Source: a virus
Length of the DNA: 32,874 nt
Virus record (IMG/VR): IMGVR_UViG_3300000553_000177
Strand: one strand, 5' to 3'
Below the pieces are notes generated by a model. The model saw only the letters and a list, made by a program, of their open reading frames with translations. It was not told where the DNA came from and made no database searches. Numbering within the stretch: position 1 is the stretch's first letter; each line of letters starts with the position of its first letter. Both the position numbers and the translations under genes were made by a program. Below are positions 5,161 through 32,367 of this stretch, one piece after another.

Positions 5161-5518
5161 ACTTATGAGGTCTATTAGGTTTTAAAGGATTTTTGGATTT
5201 AACTGTAAAAGTGTTGGTTGATTTTGTATAGAATACTTGTACTCCACCTTGATCACCGGCATTAACATTTACATAAACATCATCAAGATATCCATAACCT
5301 TCAACATAAATAGTAGCATAACCACCACCAGCATCAACAGTAAAACTTGGGCTACCGAAAGGATTAGCACTCATATTATAACCATTCCAATTTACATCTA
5401 CATAATAATTCACACTATTATCAATATAAAATGTGCCTTGTGGTTTTTTACAACCAGTAAATAATATAAGTGTCATTGCAATAAATAATACACTTACTAA
5501 AGTAATTAGTTTTCTCAT
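5159..5518 (-). CDS. lipoprotein (119 aa): signal peptide, then lipobox LFTGC
   Basis: N-terminal MRKLITLVSVLFIAMTLILFTGC; type II signal peptide with a Cys-containing lipobox. Confidence 0.6.
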   Translation of the reverse strand: MRKLITLVSVLFIAMTLILFTGCKKPQGTFYIDNSVNYYVDVNWNGYNMSANPFGSPSFTVDAGGGYATIYVEGYGYLDDVYVNVNAGDQGGVQVFYTKSTNTFTVKSKNPLKPNRPHK

Positions 5519-5640
5519 AATTTTGAATTTTTTTTTAGATTTATCTATAATATATAATATTGAATATTATAATAATAGTTTTAATTATTTCTGGGAGTTC
5601 CTTATTTAGAATAATTCTAAATAAGAAAAATAAGCATTAA

Positions 5641-5668
5641 AAAACCCTCCTAATAGAGGGTTTTTTAA
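5641..5668. terminator. intrinsic terminator: CCCTC-CTAATA-GAGGG followed by TTTTTT
   Basis: hairpin plus T-run directly after the 3' end of gene 5672..5896; A-run on the other side. Confidence 0.7.
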
Positions 5669-5671
5669 TTT

Positions 5672-5896
5672 TTAAGTTTGATTTCCTTTTTTAATTAACA
5701 TAATTATTAGTGCGACAATAGCTGCAAAATCAAAAAAATATAAGCCAGTGATATCAACTGGTACACCTGTTGATCGTTCAGATATTCCAACAATTACACC
5801 AATAAAAAATGCGATACCAATAGGTAGTAAAGCTGTCCATTTCCATCCATTGCGCCAAGCAAAAATGGTTAATACAATTTCAATTAAAAATAACAT
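5672..5896 (-). CDS. small membrane protein (74 aa, 2 TM segments)
   Basis: ORF track; hydrophobic; a terminator follows. Confidence 0.55.
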   Translation of the reverse strand: MLFLIEIVLTIFAWRNGWKWTALLPIGIAFFIGVIVGISERSTGVPVDITGLYFFDFAAIVALIIMLIKKGNQT

Positions 5897-18005: not shown

Positions 18006-18232
18006 AAATTATATTTTTTTGCCTCCAAACGATTTTTTAATTCTTTCAATTTCTCTATTAAATTATCAATCTTATTGGAAGAAAGTTCATTTTCATCAAT
18101 ATTGAAATCTATTATAATATCTACCATATAAATATCCATTAAAATTATATCTGTTCTAATTTCATTTGCTAATTTTTGTAAATCTAAATCAAAATGAATT
18201 TCTGATTCATTAAATTTCCTAATTTTCATCAT
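18002..18232 (-). CDS. family A small protein (76 aa), MMKIRKFNESE...AKKYNL; a paralog of 17769..18005
   Basis: ORF track; shared ...IEKLKELKNRL / IEKLKKLKKRL segment. Confidence 0.6.
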   Translation of the reverse strand: MMKIRKFNESEIHFDLDLQKLANEIRTDIILMDIYMVDIIIDFNIDENELSSNKIDNLIEKLKELKNRLEAKKYNL

Positions 18233-18564
18233 AGATTATATTTTTTTGCATCTACTTCGTACTCTTCTATAAAATATCCAGAATCTAAACCTATAAAATG
18301 ATTATCATCCGTTAAAACTACAAAACATCTACCTGAAAGCATTACACCAGTTTCAAATTCAGCATACAACCTATATAATTTACCTTTAGTTAATTCCTTA
18401 GGTGCATCGTCATTACAATAAACATTTCTTAAAAACTTATCATTTTCAAGATTGAAAGGATTAAATTTTGTTTTAAGCCTAATTTGTTGCATAGATAGTC
18501 CTCTTGGACTTCTTTTAGATGATATTGCCTCATTTAAATTTTCATAATCAATCAAATGTTTCAT
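18229..18564 (-). CDS. family A small protein (111 aa), MKHLIDYENL...AKKYNL; the first gene of array 3
   Basis: ORF track; motifs. Confidence 0.6.
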   Translation of the reverse strand: MKHLIDYENLNEAISSKRSPRGLSMQQIRLKTKFNPFNLENDKFLRNVYCNDDAPKELTKGKLYRLYAEFETGVMLSGRCFVVLTDDNHFIGLDSGYFIEEYEVDAKKYNL

Positions 18565-18652: not shown

Positions 18653-19087
18653 ATGAATAAAAATAAGTATAACCTCTTTATAGACGACGAGCGTTTTCCG
18701 AACAAAGATGTTCCGGCAAGTGATAGTGTTTTTCACCTTACAGGTGATAATAAATATCGAGATTTAAAATGGATAATTGTTAGAAATTTTGGAGATTTCG
18801 TTAAAATTATTGAAGAAAGAGGTTTACCGTTGAGGTGCTCGATGGACCATGATTTAAATGATTTTCATTATTATCATTATCAGACTTATACAGTATATAC
18901 AGGAAAAATTGATTATACAGTTGTTGAAGGTACAGGACTTGAATGTGCTAAATGGCTCATTAACTATTTGATGGATAATGATTTAGATGCACCCGAAATT
19001 TTGATACATACTCAAAATACCGTTGGTGCTGAGAATATAAGAATGTTATTTAACGATTATGAAAAATCAAGAATTATTACATTATAA
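18653..19087 (+). CDS. hypothetical protein (144 aa) whose N-terminus, MNKNKYNLFIDDE, carries a KYNL/junction-like sequence in plus orientation
   Basis: ORF track; AAAAATAAGTATAACCTCTTTATAGAC resembles the junction. Confidence 0.5.
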   Translation: MNKNKYNLFIDDERFPNKDVPASDSVFHLTGDNKYRDLKWIIVRNFGDFVKIIEERGLPLRCSMDHDLNDFHYYHYQTYTVYTGKIDYTVVEGTGLECAKWLINYLMDNDLDAPEILIHTQNTVGAENIRMLFNDYEKSRIITL

Positions 19088-19373
19088 AAATTTTTATATT
19101 GGTGATTATTTTATTATAATCACAACTCCTGGTATATGGAATAGTTCAATGAATAATAATTGTCCACTAAATAGTAATATATCTTATCCTTATAAAGGAA
19201 GAATTAAAAATATATTGGCAAGTCAAGTGTATGGAAAAGTAATAATAGGAATGACAGAAGGTATATATGGATGGTCTTTAAGTTATTTAGTAGGAAAAGG
19301 TTTAATTATTCATGATGTAATAAAACAAAGAAAAGTAAAATTAATGAAAATAAAACAAGATTATGAAAAATAA
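19059..19373 (+). CDS. family B small protein, tail KQRKVKLMKIKQDYEK (the likely start is the internal Met near 19149)
   Basis: ORF track; the 5' end overlaps the previous gene. Confidence 0.45.
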   Translation: MKNQELLHYKNFYIGDYFIIITTPGIWNSSMNNNCPLNSNISYPYKGRIKNILASQVYGKVIIGMTEGIYGWSLSYLVGKGLIIHDVIKQRKVKLMKIKQDYEK

Positions 19374-20769: not shown

Positions 20770-21054
20770 ATGAAAGATAATTATATAGTATGTTGTAAGA
20801 ATGTTGATGAATCGGTAAAGATTCATAAGTTTTTATTTTTGAATGGTATATATTGGAGGGATACAAGGGATGTTATTAGGAGTGGTACTAGATGGTTATG
20901 GTTAAGGATAAGTCAGGGACAAATACAAGCGTGTGGTGAGTCTTACAGATATTTAGATGGTTATTATGAGCATATTAATATATGTGATTACACATTTATA
21001 ACGGTAGATAAGTTAATGAGAAAATTAAAATTGCAGAGATTAAATGAGATATGA
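20770..21054 (+). CDS. family B small protein (94 aa), MKDNYIVCCKNVDES..., tail MRKLKLQRLNEI
   Basis: ORF track. Confidence 0.55.
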   Translation: MKDNYIVCCKNVDESVKIHKFLFLNGIYWRDTRDVIRSGTRWLWLRISQGQIQACGESYRYLDGYYEHINICDYTFITVDKLMRKLKLQRLNEI

Positions 21055-21374
21055 AGATAGATGTGAAGATTGGTGAGTTAGACAAGATGGCATATGATTT
21101 ATATGTTGATGCGACAATGAGAGCGAATAAAATATTATGTAAGAAGAACAAGTTGATATATGTCAAAGTTGATTTAATAACTGTTTTAAAGAAAGGTGAA
21201 TACTATGATATTACTTATCCAGTTGAAAGATTAGTTTGTGTAAGGTATGGTCCAGGTAAGCATGATATAATGTTATTTAATGACGGTTATTATGGTTATG
21301 AATCTATTTGGGAATATTTTTATACGGTAAAGGAATCAAGGAGAATGAAATTAAAAAGATTGTTGTTGATATGA
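21051..21374 (+). CDS. family B small protein (107 aa), tail ESRRMKLKRLLLI
   Basis: ORF track; ATGA overlap. Confidence 0.55.
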   Translation: MKIDVKIGELDKMAYDLYVDATMRANKILCKKNKLIYVKVDLITVLKKGEYYDITYPVERLVCVRYGPGKHDIMLFNDGYYGYESIWEYFYTVKESRRMKLKRLLLI

Positions 21375-21610: not shown

Positions 21611-22030
21611 ATGAACATATTTGAAAAGTTAAATGTTCCTGAGAACACTAATGGATTTATTAATAAGCAAGTGATATGTATAAAGGATAAGAAATTTATA
21701 TATGCACAGGTTAATAGTGAAAAGAAACCTTATAGATTAGTAAGGTGGAGATTTCTTGTTGGTAAAGAAAGTTTTATAAAGGATACTAGGAGATATAGAA
21801 TTGGTTCACTTATGAGGTGTTATGAACATAGTGCTATAAAGAGATTTATTAATAGATGTAGGAGAATATATTCTAATAAACTTGTATCAGATTATCCTTG
21901 GAAATGTGATATAATTGATAATAAAGGTCGGTTTATCATAATGAATTGTGAGAAAGCGTTAAAATATTTTCGAGTTGTTGATTTACAAGATATTAGGCAA
22001 AAGAAATTATTAAACTTGAAATCATTATAG
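21611..22030 (+). CDS. family B protein (139 aa), tail IRQKKLLNLKSL; its 3' end overlaps the 3' end of a convergent family A gene by 6 nt
   Basis: ORF track. Confidence 0.55.
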   Translation: MNIFEKLNVPENTNGFINKQVICIKDKKFIYAQVNSEKKPYRLVRWRFLVGKESFIKDTRRYRIGSLMRCYEHSAIKRFINRCRRIYSNKLVSDYPWKCDIIDNKGRFIIMNCEKALKYFRVVDLQDIRQKKLLNLKSL

Positions 22031-22330
22031 ATTATATTTTGTTGCATTGAGTTCTAATTCATATTCTTCTATTTCATCTTCATGTAGTTTTCTTTCTATT
22101 TGGTCATGTCTACACCATAGAGTTAGACCTTTACTAAATTGAACTGCGTAAGGTACATTACTATAATCATTATAAATTATTTTAGCACTTCTAGAATCTT
22201 CGAAAGATTTTAAAAATTCTCTCTTTATTAACACATAATCATCTACTTTATAATTAATAATATCTAGAAATTCTGGGTTCTCGTCATACCACCCTGCGGG
22301 AGATTCGTACATTTTTAAGTGTTTCATCAT
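22025..22330 (-). CDS. family A small protein (101 aa), MMKHLKMYESP...ATKYNL
   Basis: ORF track. Confidence 0.6.
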   Translation of the reverse strand: MMKHLKMYESPAGWYDENPEFLDIINYKVDDYVLIKREFLKSFEDSRSAKIIYNDYSNVPYAVQFSKGLTLWCRHDQIERKLHEDEIEEYELELNATKYNL

Positions 22331-22644
22331 AGATTATATTTTTTTGCATCTATTTTTATTTGTAATTCATCTAGAAGATCTTGAATATCATCTGATTGCA
22401 TAACAATATTATTTAATAAATTTTTTTCATCACAAGGTTGTGTTTCTTCATCATTATATTCATTTATAAGAACTAACCATGGTGTAAGAGTATATCTTTT
22501 TGCTATATAGTATTCTTTTTTATCATGTGCTGTAATTTCCCATATATAATACCAATACCATATAGTATCTTGTCCTATACTTTCTTCAAGTAGGAATTGT
22601 TTAGGCTTTATCTTCAGTTTCTCAAATAATTTAATATGTTTCAT
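22327..22644 (-). CDS. family A small protein (105 aa), MKHIKLFEKL...AKKYNL
   Basis: ORF track. Confidence 0.6.
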   Translation of the reverse strand: MKHIKLFEKLKIKPKQFLLEESIGQDTIWYWYYIWEITAHDKKEYYIAKRYTLTPWLVLINEYNDEETQPCDEKNLLNNIVMQSDDIQDLLDELQIKIDAKKYNL

Positions 22645-23009
22645 AAGTTATATTTTGCTGCATCTACATACATTTGTATGTCTTCTTTATTTTGAGAATA
22701 GTATGCTATATTATTTCTTGTAACATTTTCAGCAAAGTATTCTGTTGTATCATCTTTATAATTTCTGATAGTGAATTTAGATTCAAATTCTGGTGGCACA
22801 TATTCATATTGTACTATATATTTAGTTTTATTATTATCTGCTGGAAAAATATTAAATATTTGACCAATATTTGTATTTAGAAAATTTATAAATGCTGAAT
22901 TTGTTACTATATTATTAGTTTGTAAGATAACATAATCATCTATTTCTGGTAGTGAACCATGAACTTTATTCCATTTATTTTCATTTTCGTACAATTTAAT
23001 ATATTTCAT
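22641..23009 (-). CDS. family A protein (122 aa), MKYIKLYENENKWNKV...AAKYNL
   Basis: ORF track; its first 16 aa plus the junction are identical to those of 23214..23501. Confidence 0.6.
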   Translation of the reverse strand: MKYIKLYENENKWNKVHGSLPEIDDYVILQTNNIVTNSAFINFLNTNIGQIFNIFPADNNKTKYIVQYEYVPPEFESKFTIRNYKDDTTEYFAENVTRNNIAYYSQNKEDIQMYVDAAKYNL

Positions 23010-23501
23010 AGGTTATATTTTTTTGTTACCATGTGGATACTATTCTCTTCTAAGTATTTACGAATTTCATCACGATTTTTCTTAATATTTATTGGTTGAT
23101 ATTCATATCCAAAAATCGCTGTACTTGTTTTAGATTTCGGTGTTATTATATCCATTGTTGTATTATACTGAAAATTACCAAGAAATGGATCTGCATTGTA
23201 ATCAATTAAAATCTTAGCAACTAGCAGCACTCATTAAAGGAGTCCATTTACCTGTATCTTGAATATCTTCTGGATTTGCACCATGTTCTAACATATATTT
23301 TACAACTTCAAAATTATTCATTCTAGTCGCCCAATTTAATGTTCCACAAAAATTTGGATCAGCACCATTTTCAATTGCCAATTTAATTTTATCAAAATTC
23401 ATATACCATTTATCAGCACCTATTTTGAAATGTGTCCATGTTGCAGCATGAAGAACTTTATTCCATTTATTTTCATTTTCGTACAATTTAATATATTTCA
23501 T
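23006..23501 (-). pseudogene. ankyrin-repeat family A member split by a frameshift near 23214-23232 (ORFs 23214..23501 and 23006..23230)
   Basis: ANK consensus GADPNFCGTLNWA..., ...VVKYMLEHGANPEDIQDTGKWTPLMSAA, then LLVAKILIDYNADP in the other frame; ends ...TKKYNL. Confidence 0.5.
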
Positions 23502-23588
23502 AGGTTATATTTTTTTCTGTGGTATGCTGTGGTATAAAGTTCATAAATATATTTCTTACTTCGGTTGCTGGTTTTATATTTGTGAAAA

Positions 23589-24029
23589 TCACAAATTATA
23601 TTTTATTGCATCTACATATGTATCTACGTCTTCTTTATTGTGTGAGTAGAAGAATATATTTTCTTCTGGTATCCATCTTCTATATGTTATTTTTGAATTT
23701 TCTTTTCTAATATATCTTATACTATTATAAAGTCTTGCTGGAGTTGCTATGTTTTTTTCCCAAAAATATTCCTCAAACAAATATTTAAATTTTGGTGGCA
23801 CAGTATCATATTCTATTTGGTATGCATTTCTGTTATTTTGTTCGAAATTGTCTATCTTCTTGGTTATATTACATATATTAGTTCCTATAAATTTTTTGAA
23901 TTCGGGATCAAAAGAAGGTTCTAAAAGAGGATGGTCATTTTTATTTATAAGAGAAGATACGATGGCATAGTCATAAATTTGTGGTTTAGATTTATTTTTA
24001 TATTCATTTAATTTCATTAGGTATTTCAT
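23589..24029 (-). CDS. family A protein (146 aa), MKYLMKLNEY...AIKYNL; a hairpin overlaps its stop
   Basis: ORF track; hairpin GTGA-AAA-TCAC at 23582-23592. Confidence 0.6.
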   Translation of the reverse strand: MKYLMKLNEYKNKSKPQIYDYAIVSSLINKNDHPLLEPSFDPEFKKFIGTNICNITKKIDNFEQNNRNAYQIEYDTVPPKFKYLFEEYFWEKNIATPARLYNSIRYIRKENSKITYRRWIPEENIFFYSHNKEDVDTYVDAIKYNL

Positions 24030-24030
24030 A

Positions 24031-24318
24031 TTATAAATTATATTTATTTACATCTTCTATATATTCTAGTTCTTTTCTGTTTTTGGAGTATTCAATTATG
24101 TCTTCTCTTTTAAAATAAATAATTCTATTACCAGATACGATGGCATATTCGGGTGTATTATATGCTATATATCTTATTTTAATAATTTTTCCTATAATAA
24201 AATTAGATTTTTCACGGTACTGCCAAAGCACTCGGTCATCGTAAACGATAACATAATCATCAATTTGGGGTGGAGTTTCTTTTTTTTCGAATATAATAAA
24301 GGGTGTTATATGTTTCAT
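24031..24318 (-). CDS. family A small protein (95 aa), MKHITPFIIFE...VNKYNL
   Basis: ORF track. Confidence 0.55.
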   Translation of the reverse strand: MKHITPFIIFEKKETPPQIDDYVIVYDDRVLWQYREKSNFIIGKIIKIRYIAYNTPEYAIVSGNRIIYFKREDIIEYSKNRKELEYIEDVNKYNL

Positions 24319-24765: not shown

Positions 24766-25026
24766 TTGTATATTTATTATATGGGAGTAATTTGTGAGAA
24801 TTATAGTAAATGTAAATTAATAGAAGGTTTTGGTCCTTTTGTTTGTAGACATCATTTTGAGCATGATTATCAAAATGCTTGTGATGTATCAAATTGTGGT
24901 TGGTTAAAACATATTTTGATAAATGATAAGTCATTAAAGATAAAGATTAATTATATTGCGGTTTGTGTAGATTATAATAGGTTAGTAAGGAAGGAAAAGT
25001 TAAAGAGGATTAATGAAAAATTATAA
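24766..25026 (+). CDS. Cys-rich family B small protein (86 aa), tail VRKEKLKRINEKL
   Basis: ORF track. Confidence 0.5.
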   Translation: MYIYYMGVICENYSKCKLIEGFGPFVCRHHFEHDYQNACDVSNCGWLKHILINDKSLKIKINYIAVCVDYNRLVRKEKLKRINEKL

Positions 25027-25280
25027 AAGGTAATTATATCATACAATGTAAGAATGTTGATGAATCTATAAAGGTTCAAAAAATTTTATTTTCTGTTGGT
25101 TCAATTGTTAATCTTAGGTATGGTTGGTTAAGAATAAGTGAATCTAAAATTATAGCGTTAGGAGAGCCTTACAAACATTTGTATTGTTTTTATATTAACA
25201 TTAAGAATTATAAATATATGACTGCTAATATGTTAATGCGGAAAATAAAATTGGAGAAGTTAAAATCAATTAATATATGA
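25013..25280 (+). pseudogene. paralog of 20770..21054 (KGNYIIQCKNVDESIKVQ...MRKIKLEKLKSINI) with an insertion of about 13 nt after ATGAAA that shifts the frame; no in-frame ATG
   Basis: manual translation; compare ATGAAAGATAATTATATAGTATGTTGTAAG (20769) with ATGAAAAATTATAAAAGGTAATTATATCATACAATGTAAG (25013). Confidence 0.45.
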
Positions 25281-25465
25281 AGAAGGAAAAGTTAATATGT
25301 GAGTATAGTGATAAGTGTACTGTTGGTGTTAAGTGTGTACATTATCTTGTACATGATAAGACAACAGGTTGTGGTCACTTTGGTTGTGATCAGGTGGATA
25401 ATGCAGTTTGTGTGAGTATTAAAGAGATAAGGAAGAGAAAGTTAGAGAAGTTAAATTCATTATAA
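25277..25465 (+). CDS. Cys-rich family B small protein (62 aa), tail IRKRKLEKLNSL
   Basis: ORF track; ATGA overlap. Confidence 0.5.
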   Translation: MKKEKLICEYSDKCTVGVKCVHYLVHDKTTGCGHFGCDQVDNAVCVSIKEIRKRKLEKLNSL

Positions 25466-25836: not shown

Positions 25837-26154
25837 ATGAAAATGTTTAAAATAGAAGAAGGTTTGGTATTATACTGTAAGAAGGACACTCATATTTTTA
25901 ATAAAGAAAAGATAAATAAAGGATCGGAGTGTAAAATTGTTGCAGTTCAAAGATCTACTATATTTTTTGATAACACTTGCCAAATAGATTATGATAAAAA
26001 GGGACTTGCTATAAGTATTAAGAAAAATGGATCTGATTTTTCTTTATTATTTATGAGCTTTAGGAGCTATGACTACGAGTATATTTGGGATCATTTTATA
26101 CTAGAGGAATTATATTTAAGGAAGCAAAAACTAAAAAGGCTGAGTAGTTTATGA
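25837..26154 (+). CDS. family B small protein (105 aa), tail LRKQKLKRLSSL
   Basis: ORF track. Confidence 0.55.
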   Translation: MKMFKIEEGLVLYCKKDTHIFNKEKINKGSECKIVAVQRSTIFFDNTCQIDYDKKGLAISIKKNGSDFSLLFMSFRSYDYEYIWDHFILEELYLRKQKLKRLSSL

Positions 26155-26176: not shown

Positions 26177-26776
26177 ATGAGAAAAATTAGTTTTTTTATT
26201 CGTAGTAATAATATTGAGGATTATAAAGAGTTTATAATCTTAGCTGATCGGTATGGGTTTAATACTAGTAATTTAGAAAATTTAAGAATAGATGATCAGG
26301 GAAAACTTTTTGTAAAAAAGTTTGGTGTTCGTTTCCAACCGATTGGAATTGGAATCATCAGTGATATACCTGATCATGTTGTGGACACAAAATTTGATCT
26401 ATGTTCAAGGGTTTTTTTGGCTTATGAAAATTATGACATTGCAAGGGAAGTATTAAAATCATCTGATATGGAAAAATATATTAGGATTTATAAACATAGA
26501 CTTAGAAAATTCAAACATCATATTCAAGGATTATTAAAAGATAAATTAAAGAAGTATCCATATTTTGAGATTGGTGAGGAGGTTTATAGTGACATGGATG
26601 TTAAATATCGTTGGATAAAAGAGTTGGGTTATACTTATTTTGTAATATTGGGTTATACTTATTTTAGTAGTGGTTGGGAAATAAGAACACAGAAAGGTTA
26701 TTCTTTTTTTGAGACTTTGAATCCTAGGTATAAGAAGAAAATTCGTAAGTATAAGTTGAAGAAAATTGGTTTATAG
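26177..26776 (+). CDS. family B protein (199 aa), tail IRKYKLKKIGL
   Basis: ORF track. Confidence 0.55.
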   Translation: MRKISFFIRSNNIEDYKEFIILADRYGFNTSNLENLRIDDQGKLFVKKFGVRFQPIGIGIISDIPDHVVDTKFDLCSRVFLAYENYDIAREVLKSSDMEKYIRIYKHRLRKFKHHIQGLLKDKLKKYPYFEIGEEVYSDMDVKYRWIKELGYTYFVILGYTYFSSGWEIRTQKGYSFFETLNPRYKKKIRKYKLKKIGL

Positions 26777-26784
26777 AATATTTT

Positions 26785-27090
26785 ATGATTTTAAAAATTG
26801 GAGATATAGTTAGGGTTAAATCAATCCAGTGGTATAACAAGAATAAAAAATATTGTGTACATGGTCCTGGCCCGTATGGATTTGTAGTCAAGAATACAAC
26901 AGTTAATTTTACAGACCATATGAGTACATATTGTGGTAAAATTGGTATCGTTGTTGGTTATTTACCTTTTGGTTATGATATTCAATTTGAAGATGAATCT
27001 CAATATTATCGTTACGTATGGACAAATGATATGTTGGATTTGGAGAAGTTAATACGTAAGAAAAAATTAGAAAAGATTAAAAAAATGTAA
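26785..27090 (+). CDS. family B small protein (101 aa), subfamily GD.V.VKS..WYNKNK, tail IRKKKLEKIKKM
   Basis: ORF track; paralog of 31249..31530 and 31791..32063. Confidence 0.55.
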   Translation: MILKIGDIVRVKSIQWYNKNKKYCVHGPGPYGFVVKNTTVNFTDHMSTYCGKIGIVVGYLPFGYDIQFEDESQYYRYVWTNDMLDLEKLIRKKKLEKIKKM

Positions 27091-27718: not shown

Positions 27719-27928
27719 TTAATCACTACCTGCTTTGGATGCATTTATGTGTGATTCACTAAATCCGTGTGAAGAACTATGTGAACTTGAAGATGAATGT
27801 GAAGAAAATGAATGTGAAGATGAGGAAGAATGTGAAGAAGATGAACTGTGTCCACCGCCACCTCCTCTTGGAAAAAGGGGTGATGTAATCATAAACATAA
27901 ATGCAATAATAATACTAATTTTTTTCAT
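27719..27928 (-). CDS. secreted His/Ser-rich low-complexity protein (start taken at MKKISIIIAFMFMITSPLF)
   Basis: signal peptide, then G5-(HSSSSS)n repeats; the antisense Glu/Cys-rich ORF is a mirror artefact. Confidence 0.45.
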   Translation of the reverse strand: MKKISIIIAFMFMITSPLFPRGGGGGHSSSSSHSSSSSHSFSSHSSSSSHSSSHGFSESHINASKAGSD

Positions 27929-28159
27929 ATTGTTTTTTTTAAGTGAGTGAATATTAATTAAACATGATTGAATAAACAACAATAGTAACAACTGTTGTCA
28001 CGAACAAAATTGCAACAACTAGCTGCAAATTGCTAACCAAAACTTCCTTTTCTAATACATTTTTCATATTTGTTTTCGTTTATAATGCAAAGATAAGGAA
28101 AATTATTAAAAGAAAAAAAAATAAAAGGGAGTCTTTTGAACTCCCTTATAATAAGAACA

Positions 28160-29032: not shown

Positions 29033-29441
29033 TTCTGGAGCATTAAAGAAGATGAAAAACAAGCAATTGAAAATCACTTATAAATTATATTTTTCTATAT
29101 CTCTTTGAAATGGATATGAAGTGGATAGGGTTTTTAAAGAAGTTGCTAGTGGAATGAATGATAATAGAAAAGAATTAAATAAATTACTTGAAATTAAATA
29201 TAAATATATAGTTATAGAACATAAAGATAGGTTAACTAGATTTGGCTTTAATTACTTGGAAACTTTATTGTTCAGACTAGGAACAGAAATAATAGTAATC
29301 AATAGGGATAGAGAAGATGAAACAGATTTAATTAAAGATTTTATATCAATTATCACATCATATTGCTGTAGATTATATGGAATGAGACGATGTGAAACAA
29401 AAAAAGAAAAAATATTAGAGGTAATAAATGATAACCATTAA
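29033..29441 (+). pseudogene. tnpA: IS607-family serine recombinase TnpA: an N-terminally truncated and disrupted remnant. The C-terminal ~105 aa are intact from a GTG at 29121
   Basis: NGYEVDRVFKEVASGMNDNRKELNKLL...IVIEHKDRLTRFGFNYLE...SIITSYCCRLYGMRR matches the IS607 TnpA C-terminal region. The upstream frame (..KEDEKQAIENHL*) is interrupted by a 20-25 bp junction-motif-like insert at 29079-29103. Confidence 0.6.
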
Positions 29442-30723
29442 ATTAAAATACAAATCCAACACTGATTTTCAGGATTTTCTTTCAAACCTTCAAAGACAAT
29501 TCTCCAATGTCTATAGATATAGTTATAATAGATTTTATGATGGTTTATCAAAAAAAGAAATTTACCACCTCATTCCATCTCTAAACAACGTAGAACTCAT
29601 TAAAGGTAGATTAATTAATGATTGTATTGATTTTGCTTACAGATTATATGAAAAAGATAAAAAATCAAACCATAAATCAATCTTCGGCGGTAAAAAGAAT
29701 TTCATCCTGAAATGTAAAGAAAAATTAACAAATGAACAATTTTCACAGAAAAGGTTAATATCGTTATATTTTCAAGGTGAAACTGCTAGATCAGGTAATA
29801 GAAATTTTAACCTTGATATCCTTAATAACACAATAACATTTAAATATAATAAACAATTCCATTTTGATTTATCTGTTAAACCATCTAAAAACCAACTAAA
29901 ACAATTAATCGAACTTCAGGATCTATGTAATCAAAAGAAATCAAAATTTACAATCACTTTAAGTCATGAATTTATTAATATTAGTTTTGAACCAACAAAG
30001 CATGAAGTGATTGATTTAATTGATGATAGGTTTGTTGGAATTGATTTAAATCCAACAAATATTGGAATGTCCATTTGTAATTCCAAGATGGAAGTGATTG
30101 ATAGTTATGATTTTGAATTCTCTGAAATCATAAACAAGATAAAAAAATCAAAGGTAGCAAGTAATTCCAAGGAAATGAAATATTTGAATAATAAATTGGA
30201 TTATGAAATATTGAATATAAGTAAAAAAATATCAGGCATATCCAAACATTATAAATGTAAATTTATATTTATAGAGGATCTAGAATTTAAAAGTAAAAAT
30301 GAATGGAATAACAGGTTATTAAAGAATTTATGGAAAAGAAATATTTTCATTCAGAATTTAGAAAAGAGATGTGGGATAGCCAATCAGAGGTTATTCAAGG
30401 TTAATCCGGCATATAGTTCATTTATAGGTAATTGTATGTATGATATTGTAGATCCTGTAAATTCTAGTATGGAAATTTCTAGAAGGGGTTATGAAATAAT
30501 AATAAATAAGTCAAAGAAATTTTATCCAGTAGTTTGGTTAAAAGAGTCATTAAAACACCAATGGAAGGAAAAGGTTAGTGATATACCAGATAGTTGGAAA
30601 GAGTTATTCGATTTAGTAAAAAACTTGAAATTGAGTTATCGAGTTTCATTAAAGGAGGATGTAAATGATTTTAATGTTTTTAGTAAAAAAGTTAGGATGT
30701 ATGATATTTATCAATTTTCTTGA
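29428..30723 (+). CDS. tnpB: IS607-type TnpB (OrfB / Fanzor-like RuvC nuclease), 431 aa
   Basis: RuvC-I GIDLNPTN, RuvC-II FIFIEDLEF and a later D in a degenerate zinc-finger region; position after tnpA; AGAGG 8 nt before the ATG. Confidence 0.6.
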   Translation: MITIKLKYKSNTDFQDFLSNLQRQFSNVYRYSYNRFYDGLSKKEIYHLIPSLNNVELIKGRLINDCIDFAYRLYEKDKKSNHKSIFGGKKNFILKCKEKLTNEQFSQKRLISLYFQGETARSGNRNFNLDILNNTITFKYNKQFHFDLSVKPSKNQLKQLIELQDLCNQKKSKFTITLSHEFINISFEPTKHEVIDLIDDRFVGIDLNPTNIGMSICNSKMEVIDSYDFEFSEIINKIKKSKVASNSKEMKYLNNKLDYEILNISKKISGISKHYKCKFIFIEDLEFKSKNEWNNRLLKNLWKRNIFIQNLEKRCGIANQRLFKVNPAYSSFIGNCMYDIVDPVNSSMEISRRGYEIIINKSKKFYPVVWLKESLKHQWKEKVSDIPDSWKELFDLVKNLKLSYRVSLKEDVNDFNVFSKKVRMYDIYQFS

Positions 30724-31248: not shown

Positions 31249-31530
31249 ATGAGTGCAGGATATAAATATAAGATAGGTGATGTTGTTTATATCAAAGATT
31301 TAAATTGGTTCAAAAAACATCAGGGATGGGAATTTGGTGTAATGTTTATCAGCAAATCTATGTTTGAACATTGCGGTAAAAAGGCAATTATCACTAATGA
31401 ATTTGGTGGTTATAAATATGTGGTAGATATAGATAATCGCCATATTTATGCTGAGAAAATGTTTGAAACATTACGAGATGTTAGAAAAAATAAATTAAAT
31501 AAATGGACTTCAGTAAGATACAACACATAA
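31249..31530 (+). CDS. family B small protein (93 aa), subfamily GDVVYIKDL.WF, tail VRKNKLNKWTSVRYNT
   Basis: ORF track. Confidence 0.5.
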   Translation: MSAGYKYKIGDVVYIKDLNWFKKHQGWEFGVMFISKSMFEHCGKKAIITNEFGGYKYVVDIDNRHIYAEKMFETLRDVRKNKLNKWTSVRYNT

Positions 31531-31805
31531 GTTTTACAACTGCTAAAGAGGCAGTTATAGTTGCTAAATTTCTTCAAAGCCTTGACTATAAGATTAAAAA
31601 AGAATATTTGAAAGAATCCTTCTATGAATGTAATTTACCTTTTGGTAATTTTGAAATTGCTCTTCTCTACTACTATTATGGATTCACTAAGCTTGGAAAC
31701 GGGGAATGGCGTTGTTCTAATGATGGTGGTGTTATATTTACATATTCAACAAAGGCTAAACATTTAATTAGAAGAGAAAAATTGAAAAGGTTAAACAGTT
31801 TGTAA
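31503..31805 (+). CDS. family B small protein (100 aa), tail IRREKLKRLNSL
   Basis: ORF track. Confidence 0.5.
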   Translation: MDFSKIQHISFTTAKEAVIVAKFLQSLDYKIKKEYLKESFYECNLPFGNFEIALLYYYYGFTKLGNGEWRCSNDGGVIFTYSTKAKHLIRREKLKRLNSL

Positions 31806-32063
31806 CTTTTTAAGTTTCATTTTTCTCATAGTTTTTAAATCATCCAACATATAATCTTGAAATACCCATTCATCACCTGCTATATCCAATAGGTAAAAAT
31901 CAGAATGGGCTGCTGTAACTTGTGCTCGCATGCCACAATACTGTTTCATTTCAGAAGTGAAACAATGTTGACCTTGCCGGCTAATACAATCATCAAAATC
32001 TTTGTTTTTATTATACCATTTCAAAGATTTTATAACAACAACATCACCCTCCTTGTATTTCAT
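31791..32063 (-). CDS. family B small protein (90 aa), MKYKEGDVVVIKSLKWYNKNK..., tail MRKMKLKKLQTV
   Basis: ORF track; paralog of 26785..27090. Confidence 0.55.
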   Translation of the reverse strand: MKYKEGDVVVIKSLKWYNKNKDFDDCISRQGQHCFTSEMKQYCGMRAQVTAAHSDFYLLDIAGDEWVFQDYMLDDLKTMRKMKLKKLQTV

Positions 32064-32367
32064 TTGTTATTTTTTTAAGTTTCTGCTTTCTAATAAGTTG
32101 TTCGTATGTAATCCTCTTATAATCAGTAATATCTGTGGCATTTTTAAATATGATATCCATATCTTTCATTGTCTTATATTTCATATCACAACTTTTACCT
32201 GTTAAAATATAAACATATTTCATATTTTTAAAAATTGATATGTTAAATTTTTTCAGTTGATGATTTCTTTGTAAATCATCCCAATAATAACCAAAACTAA
32301 ATAAATATTTTTGCAATTGAATAACATCAGAAACCTTTGTCTTTATTATAAGTTGTTTAAGTTTCAT
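32044..32367 (-). CDS. family B small protein (107 aa), tail IRKQKLKKITNEIQGG; a paralog of 12664..12981
   Basis: ORF track; shared LQKYLFSFGYYW segment. Confidence 0.55.
   Translation of the reverse strand: MKLKQLIIKTKVSDVIQLQKYLFSFGYYWDDLQRNHQLKKFNISIFKNMKYVYILTGKSCDMKYKTMKDMDIIFKNATDITDYKRITYEQLIRKQKLKKITNEIQGG

Follow-up and report, generated by a model that had tools for sequence, protein, structure and literature searches.

The window, that is, the whole stretch of 32,874 nucleotides analysed here, has a GC content of about 26% and carries an array of about two dozen small genes on the minus strand. The encoded proteins start with M-K-Y/H-I/L-K-x-F/Y-E and end with K-(K)-Y-N-L, and ATGA overlaps are frequent in the array. 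Related loci, with a GC content of 23–28%, contained the same type of gene array. The segment described here comprises, read along the minus strand, gene U (23589..24029), a 72-nt spacer (23517..23588), an ankyrin-repeat gene (23006..23501) and gene A (22641..23009), which encodes a protein of 122 aa. Genes that open an array, namely those without an overlapping upstream gene (minus-strand starts at 8573, 25783, 2014, and 24728), carried the motif AAAAAWTTTATATATA about 8–10 nt before the ATG (region of about 8–25 nt), while genes inside an array have a 'AAAAAATATAAYYT' KYNL junction instead. The motif AAAAAWTTTATATATA may be a promoter.

Two copies of an exact direct repeat of 64 nt were found on the minus strand, at 22961..23024 (R1) and 23453..23516 (R2), with 100% identity and a start-to-start distance of 492 nt. 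The original prediction had announced an identity of 66 bp at these positions. The repeat is exact and the string quoted for it was correct, but the string has 64 letters, and the bases past the repeat end diverge (GT at 23025–23026 and CT at 23517–23518). On the coding strand, each copy consists of AAAAAAATATAACCT, ATG, 15 codons and the first base of codon 17, C. In protein terms, this corresponds to a 'KKYNL*' leader of 15 nt and an ATGA stop/start overlap, followed by MKYIKLYENENKWNKV. R1 contains the final five codons and the stop codon of the ankyrin gene, the ATGA overlap and codons 1–16 of gene A plus 1 nt. R2 contains a 15-nt 'KKYNL*'-like leader that has no upstream ORF start, and codons 1–16 of the ankyrin gene plus 1 nt. 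The span had been predicted to be a junction plus the first 16 codons, which agrees with this content except for the additional nucleotide of codon 17.

The 64-nt repeat was the longest among the exact repeats in the 32.9-kb window. When the 5' junctions of 25 family genes were compared in register (300 pairs), the exact runs showed a median of 7 nt, a 95th percentile of 13 nt, and a second maximum of 31 nt, versus 64 nt at this locus, and the 64-nt identity is far above chance level. The next-longest exact repeat in the window, a junction match of 31 nt between 18224–18254 and 22322–22352, belongs to two non-adjacent family genes 4 kb apart and contains 'DAKKYNL*' plus 'MMK'. Neighbouring genes in related loci also had exact junction runs in common, of 34–47 nt, for example the ankyrin gene of locus L015 and its downstream neighbour, and the genes at 14187 and 14640 of locus L012. 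Given these runs and the family-wide conservation of the junction and the first eight codons, selection could have kept the identity because the two genes use a common functional signal at the N-terminus or in the region of translation initiation, with no recent recombination. We regard this as very improbable, since the runs in the related loci do not go beyond the conserved tag, whereas the repeat in the window continues for a further 25 nt. Moreover, the extra codons (NENKWNKV) were present in none of the best 149 of 244 relatives of gene A, and the identity is perfect at all synonymous sites and ends abruptly.

No hairpin was found in the repeat (fold of -1 kcal/mol, z = -0.26). Between 22300 and 24400 there were 13 promoter-like sites versus 20.5 +/- 4.3 in shuffles, and none of them was repeat-specific on the coding strand; no terminator-like sites were found at the locus. 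With promoter, terminator and hairpin signals all lacking, the idea that the repeat is a regulatory or structured element was dropped. The 72-nt spacer between gene U and R2 showed no enrichment of promoters or terminators either. The idea that a family gene once lay there and left its decayed C-terminus as the spacer was unsupported, the identity of the spacer to 23 real C-termini (0.30) being at the random level. A 15-nt inverted repeat (14/15) pairs 22959–22973, at the gene-A-specific end of R1 (TGGAATAAAGTTCAT), with 23530–23544 in the spacer upstream of R2. It is probably due to chance in AT-rich DNA, though it is situated at the breakpoint.

The ankyrin gene on the minus strand is split by a frameshift into two ORFs, 23214–23501 (95 aa) and 23006–23230 (74 aa). 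Only the first of these, 23214..23501, had been given as the gene in the original prediction, and its coordinates were incomplete. The assignment to the ankyrin repeats itself is confirmed by significant Pfam matches to Ank_2 (3.3e-08), Ank_4 (3.6e-08), and Ank (1.4e-07). Intact homologues of 169–178 aa spanned both ORF pieces with 60–71% identity, and the AF2 model of one of them (P0002; pLDDT 91) was mostly helical, consistent with ankyrin repeats. Alignment of the DNA with three intact homologue genes showed that 17 nt are missing from the window, at a point between 23222 and 23221. Since a deletion of 17 nt shifts the reading frame, the ankyrin gene is a pseudogene. The frameshift was identical, base for base, in every contig reaching that point. 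The unique ankyrin body between the repeats occupies 23025..23452 on the minus strand (428 nt) and makes up, together with one repeat copy, a presence/absence unit of 492 bp. The 428 nt consist of ankyrin coding sequence alone, and a recombinase gene was absent from them.

Another ankyrin-like gene split into overlapping ORFs (61 aa and 93 aa) was observed at 5279–5681 of the related array L011. The neighbours of this gene have the alternative N-terminal tag 'MI.SFKIFE', and the orthologous ankyrin protein P0001 bears the same tag in place of MKYIK. The distribution of this tag suggests that N-terminal tags may be exchanged among neighbouring genes.

The two genes that share the repeat had been predicted to be paralogs with unrelated remaining parts. 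The second half of this statement was borne out, the body of gene A and the ankyrin body being unrelated (BLASTP E=25). The paralogy was not, except in the family-wide terminal tags, and the true paralog of gene A is gene U (32% identity, E=3e-12), which lies on the far side of the ankyrin cassette and is the direct neighbour of gene A in the ankyrin-less variant described below. A simple tandem duplication was ruled out by the end of the identity at 64 nt and the unrelated bodies. Gene A belongs to the small-gene family with MKY start and KYNL end and falls into its PQIGDYV subfamily. With an exhaustive phmmer search, 244 representatives of its family were obtained at E<=1e-3, with the consensus MKYIK.YE...PQIGDYVIC...NIGQ...SKNKEDLE.Y..A.KYNL. 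The KYNL C-terminus was present in 106 of the best 149 of these 244 relatives. No Pfam or PHROG family matched gene A, and a word-indexed protein search with it returned the self-match only.

The shared codons differ in their distribution between the two families. Eighteen ankyrin homologues (P0001-P0019) begin with 'MKYIKLFEN..DWNKVLxxATWT', in which W13 and L17 are nearly invariant, and TGGAATAAAGTTCTT was identical at the DNA level in L014. The motif WNK[VI]L was confined to the 8 ankyrin genes when 97 family-type ORFs, taken from the window and from 11 related loci, were compared. The pattern W[NDE][KEQ][VIL] was found within the first 35 aa in 0 of the best 149 of the 244 gene A relatives. 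This distribution points to the shared 16 codons being native to the ankyrin lineage and foreign to the family of gene A. Because the motif occurs in the ankyrin homologues and is absent from the relatives of gene A, gene A is the predicted recipient, a chimera with an ankyrin-type N-terminus (MKYIKLYENENKWNKV) and a body of the type 'PQIGDYV...NIGQ...SKNKEDxE.Y..A.KYNL'. A weak similarity between the N-termini of gene A and gene U had initially hinted that the repeat belonged to gene A. The candidate explanation built on this, namely a repeat native to gene A with the ankyrin body inserted under a long target duplication, was ruled out since the 16 codons are ankyrin-native.

The same codons bear on the possibility that the repeats are the target-site duplication of a mobile element, or that the ankyrin body is the cargo of an integron- or homing-type cassette. 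A discrete insert does lie between direct repeats, and an IS607-like resolvase fragment with a TnpB-like gene is located 6 kb away. We give this explanation almost no credence, because 64 nt far exceeds known target duplications, the supposed duplicated target holds ankyrin-native coding sequence, the repeat lacks a hairpin, and the unit between the copies lacks a recombinase gene.

The position of the breakpoint was compared with the predicted structures. In the AlphaFold model of the ankyrin homologue P0002, residues 1–8, the tag MKYIKLFE, are disordered and residues 10–21 form a confident helix. The repeat ends after residue 16, within this predicted first ankyrin helix. A sharp mosaic boundary had been predicted, and the identity does stop abruptly between unrelated bodies. 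The accompanying claim of an N-terminal module did not stand, since the end of the repeat cuts inside the helix of residues 10–21 and the right-hand boundary is, according to the model, not a module border. A boundary within a helix would fit an illegitimate breakpoint better than an exchange of functional modules. In the AF2 model of gene A (pLDDT 85), residues 1–20 are of low confidence, in blocks with pLDDT 55–62, and the folded core starts at about residue 25. The foreign residues would lie in a floppy tail of gene A, a plausible reason for the chimera being tolerated. A fold search with the model of gene A against the PDB gave no significant match; the best hits were weak SH3/BAH-like barrels (E=0.045, TM 0.40).

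Public assemblies were searched by looking up the exact proteins. At 100% identity, the ankyrin-bearing arrangement was recovered from at least nine further samples, which came from ENA (ERZ272718xx-9xx, with ERZ27271870, -872 and -927 among them) and from JGI (3300020707, 3300020711, 3300020724). Since both repeat copies occurred with the same flanks in these independent assemblies, it was ruled out that the repeat is an assembly artefact. One contig of 1964 bp from one sample (L003; ERZ27271907 k141_63533) had a different arrangement, in which 24216->23453 of the window is joined to 23024->21761. Its two alignments with the window overlap by the 64 nt, leaving a single repeat copy at the join. 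L003 lacks exactly 492 bp, that is, the ankyrin body and one repeat copy, and has no other difference from the window; its flanks are 100% identical to it over 700 and 1200 nt, and the 72-nt spacer is unchanged in both haplotypes. Both states, R-ank-R-A and R-A, occur in nature, the latter represented by this one 1964-bp contig. The cassette-like behaviour foreseen in the original prediction was thus observed, as the part missing from L003 is precisely the stretch enclosed by the repeats together with one of their copies.

There might be no polymorphism at all, with L003 being an assembly or library artefact produced by template switching across the 64-nt repeat or by a chimeric read from a sample of low coverage, and the repeat being the fossil of ectopic copying. 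L003 is a single short contig from a single sample, and contigs from other samples stop in or beside the repeats, an indication that the repeat disturbs assemblies: L007 stops exactly at 22961, the last base of R1, the Logan contigs L043 and L046 both end at 23487 in R2, and L044 ends at 23491. The ends of L043 and L046 are read as a repeat-induced assembly break at a short k-mer, and breaks at the repeats, taken alone, are no proof of haplotype mixtures. We nevertheless judge an artefact decidedly unlikely. The name k141 was read as a final k-mer of 141, with which the 64-nt repeat would be spanned, and a false join would need real junction-spanning k-mers. L003 is clean on both sides over the 700 and 1200 nt, with no competing branch, and no ankyrin-bearing contig was returned from sample ERZ27271907. 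The odd tail of another contig (L008, 1339–1360) was also considered as a sequence variant and ruled out, as it is Illumina adapter (AGATCGGAAGAGCGTCGTGTAGG).

We consider it fairly likely that an illegitimate join made both the chimera and the repeats, and that homologous recombination across the repeats interconverts the two haplotypes. At the start, an ankyrin-family gene would have been located upstream of a gene of the 'PQIGDYV' family. The 5' end of the ankyrin gene, consisting of the 15-nt leader, the start codon and the 16 codons, would then have been joined onto the body of the downstream gene. The upstream side of this join would be anchored in the family-wide conserved junction, and its downstream side would lie at a non-homologous point, ankyrin codon 17. 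The outcome would be a chimeric yet intact gene A and 64-bp direct repeats bracketing the ankyrin body. Two routes could lead to the observed states. The first would begin with ectopic copying or template switching in cis, and recombination of the two 64-bp copies would then produce the deletion. In the second, an in-frame deletion would fuse ankyrin codon 16/17 to gene A, and an unequal crossover located at the conserved junction would then restore the ankyrin gene. By either route, the two haplotypes would be related through recombination across the repeat. Homologous recombination or replication slippage between the 64-bp copies would interconvert them, and excision would release or lose a unit of 492 bp. 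Because the repeat includes the stop/start overlap, both states keep all frames and translational coupling. Loss of the ankyrin gene should cost nothing, since it is already inactivated by the 17-nt frameshifting deletion.

A recent conversion or swap had been proposed for this segment. It held in so far as the junction and N-terminal segment appear to have been copied recently between neighbours, but the copying would have been one-way, from the ankyrin gene to gene A, and not a swap. Gene conversion in its classical form was not upheld, since the tract has homology on its upstream side only.

The haplotypes could also be read in the opposite order. The ankyrin-less R-geneA arrangement would be the older one, the ankyrin cassette would have entered before gene A, either as a small circle in a Campbell-type integration or through unequal crossover of co-infecting genomes, via the conserved junction, and the repeats would be products of insertion instead of the substrate of deletion. 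The arrangement is symmetrical, and the empty site holds one repeat, exactly as in the model for PeSL (promoter-early stem-loop) cassettes, whose process is proposed to be reversible (PMC2839356). Creation of the chimera by an in-frame deletion and later re-insertion through homology would be mechanistically simple. The 'KKYNL*' leader also precedes the ankyrin start without an upstream ORF, as if the cassette had brought its own junction. We consider this order unlikely. The N-terminus of gene A is predicted to be ankyrin-derived, which places the ankyrin gene next to gene A, or recombining with it, before any ankyrin-less chimera existed, and the ankyrin-bearing state is commoner, in at least nine other samples versus one. 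This order would alter merely the sequence of the last step. The ancestral haplotype expected from an illegitimate join, an ankyrin gene followed by gene A with its original N-terminus, was not found among the recovered contigs; nor was a circle, a tandem array or a second independent deletion seen among them. Taken together, the locus is a recent recombination scar that is also a hinge for gene loss and gain.

Recombination of this kind has precedents in T4-type phages, in which recombination requires <50 bp of homology (PMC2839356). The functionally closest case is that of the PeSL cassettes of these phages (Arbiol et al. 2010, PMC2839356; Comeau et al. 2014, PMC4122927). As with PeSLs, dispersed conserved stretches of tens of nucleotides surround small accessory ORFs in plastic genome regions, near relatives differ by an ORF and one copy of the element, and an empty site holds a single element, as found in L003. 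In RB49, for example, PeSLs stand on both sides of ORF192, while phi1 carries a single PeSL at that site (PMC2839356). In both cases there is no dedicated recombinase, and the neighbouring genes stay functional after excision or insertion. PeSLs are intergenic and consist of a sigma-70-like promoter and a terminator stem-loop, whereas the homology at this locus is coding sequence over a stop/start overlap. The 64-nt repeat is not a PeSL, because the promoter and stem-loop that define PeSLs are both absent from it. One of the repeat copies at this locus, unlike a PeSL, would itself be born of a chimeric gene fusion. Mini-circles excised between flanking conserved elements have been demonstrated in T4-type phages (PMC2839356).

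The locus also resembles the short-homology events of T4 (Srikant, Guegler and Laub 2022, PMC9391042), in which direct repeats surround accessory genes and precise loss is possible. Recombination between short direct repeats in T4 quickly gives tandem gain or precise loss of accessory genes, and segments are amplified or deleted via short homologies within a few passages (PMC9391042). Those cases involve microhomologies of 6–10 bp under laboratory selection, whereas here a perfect repeat of 64 bp was associated with a natural polymorphism and no amplification was seen. As in ectopic gene conversion or concerted evolution in tandem families, there is a perfect tract in diverged neighbours and the donor and recipient can be identified. 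Unlike in two-sided gene conversion, the tract has homologous sequence upstream only, in the family junction, the downstream parts being unrelated. Integron cassettes share with the locus the gain or loss of promoterless ORF units at a defined junction with expression still possible. Unlike in integrons, there is no attC-like fold and no integrase at the locus, and the exchange point lies inside coding sequence. No Pfam match to an integrase was found among the scanned window proteins, the nearest recombinase being the truncated IS607-like resolvase 6 kb away. The locus also differs from the target-site duplication of a transposon, as the 64-nt repeat includes the ankyrin-native codons and the insert is the ankyrin body only. 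The locus is instructive, but it is no new kind of system. Added to the original prediction are the direction of copying, from the ankyrin gene to its neighbour, a breakpoint that does not coincide with a module border, the finding that the ankyrin gene is a pseudogene, and an indel of 492 bp that occurs naturally.

The event taken alone is an ordinary recombination footprint. The locus offers a dated and base-precise case in which an accessory array is remodelled, a chimeric gene is born and a repeat renders a dead neighbour removable. It is possible, although on balance doubtful, that the conserved stop/start junction (..K-K-Y-N-L-stop/M-K-Y-I-K..) is a built-in in-frame recombination linker besides being a protein feature. 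If so, small gene bodies, unrelated to one another and numbering in the hundreds, could be removed, added and given new heads through the linker with frames and translational coupling kept. It would be the coding-sequence counterpart of PeSLs and integron sites in AT-rich, probably huge-phage, genomes, and one linker event, caught soon after it occurred, would be seen in the 64-bp repeat and its natural excision variant. If the junction generally serves as homology, PeSL-like modular shuffling would be extended from intergenic cassettes to in-frame coding linkers, which would help to explain how unrelated small genes come to stand by the dozen in arrays and to have the same termini. A search of the literature on 'KYNL' gave nothing relevant.

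The contig carrying an ankyrin homologue with 48% identity encodes S1, NusG, TK (thymidine kinase), a gene of the PolyA_pol family (Pfam PF01743) and a tRNA-synthetase fragment. Given this gene content, the source genome is probably that of a large or huge uncultivated phage. PHROG gave two matches in the window, both weak and of unknown function. No match was obtained among INPHARED phages by blastn with 22000–24100, or in IMG/VR by alignment searches with gene A and the ankyrin gene, and a 26-nt pattern from the repeat was not found in IMG/VR or in JGI metagenome contigs, the JGI set evidently being without the carrier samples. Three independent contigs of 32,874, 31,893, and 31,516 bp end within 14 nt of window position 32874, and their other ends differ (1, about 996, and about 1359, respectively). 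This suggests a repeat boundary or a genome terminus near 32874; no terminal repeat was found within the window.

Several other features of the window were observed. Interspersed with the 'KYNL' arrays, and often on the other strand, are members of a second small-gene family, whose bodies are unrelated and which share the basic C-terminal motif R-K-x-K-L-x-K-(L/I)-(N/S/T)-x-(I/L). Examples are found on the plus strand at 19059–19373, 20770–21054, 21051–21374, 24766–25026, 25277–25465, 25837–26154, 26177–26776, 26785–27090, and 31249–31805, and on the minus strand at 9999–10473, 12664–12981, and 31791–32367. The IS607-like pair on the plus strand (29121–30723) consists of a serine-recombinase (Resolvase) ORF of 106 aa overlapping a TnpB-like ORF of 431 aa (PF27229 SSO2105_N). 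The protein encoded by the ORF at 27719–27991 on the minus strand begins like a signal peptide and continues with a Gly5 run and then a long low-complexity tract of Ser and His (HSSSSSHSSSSSHSFSSHSSSSSHSSSHG). Also on the minus strand, 13074–14360 encodes a protein of 428 aa that matches the Major Vault Protein shoulder (7.9e-28) and has Vault_3 repeats and a weak match to SPFH/Band 7. A vault-type protein is unusual on a phage-like contig.
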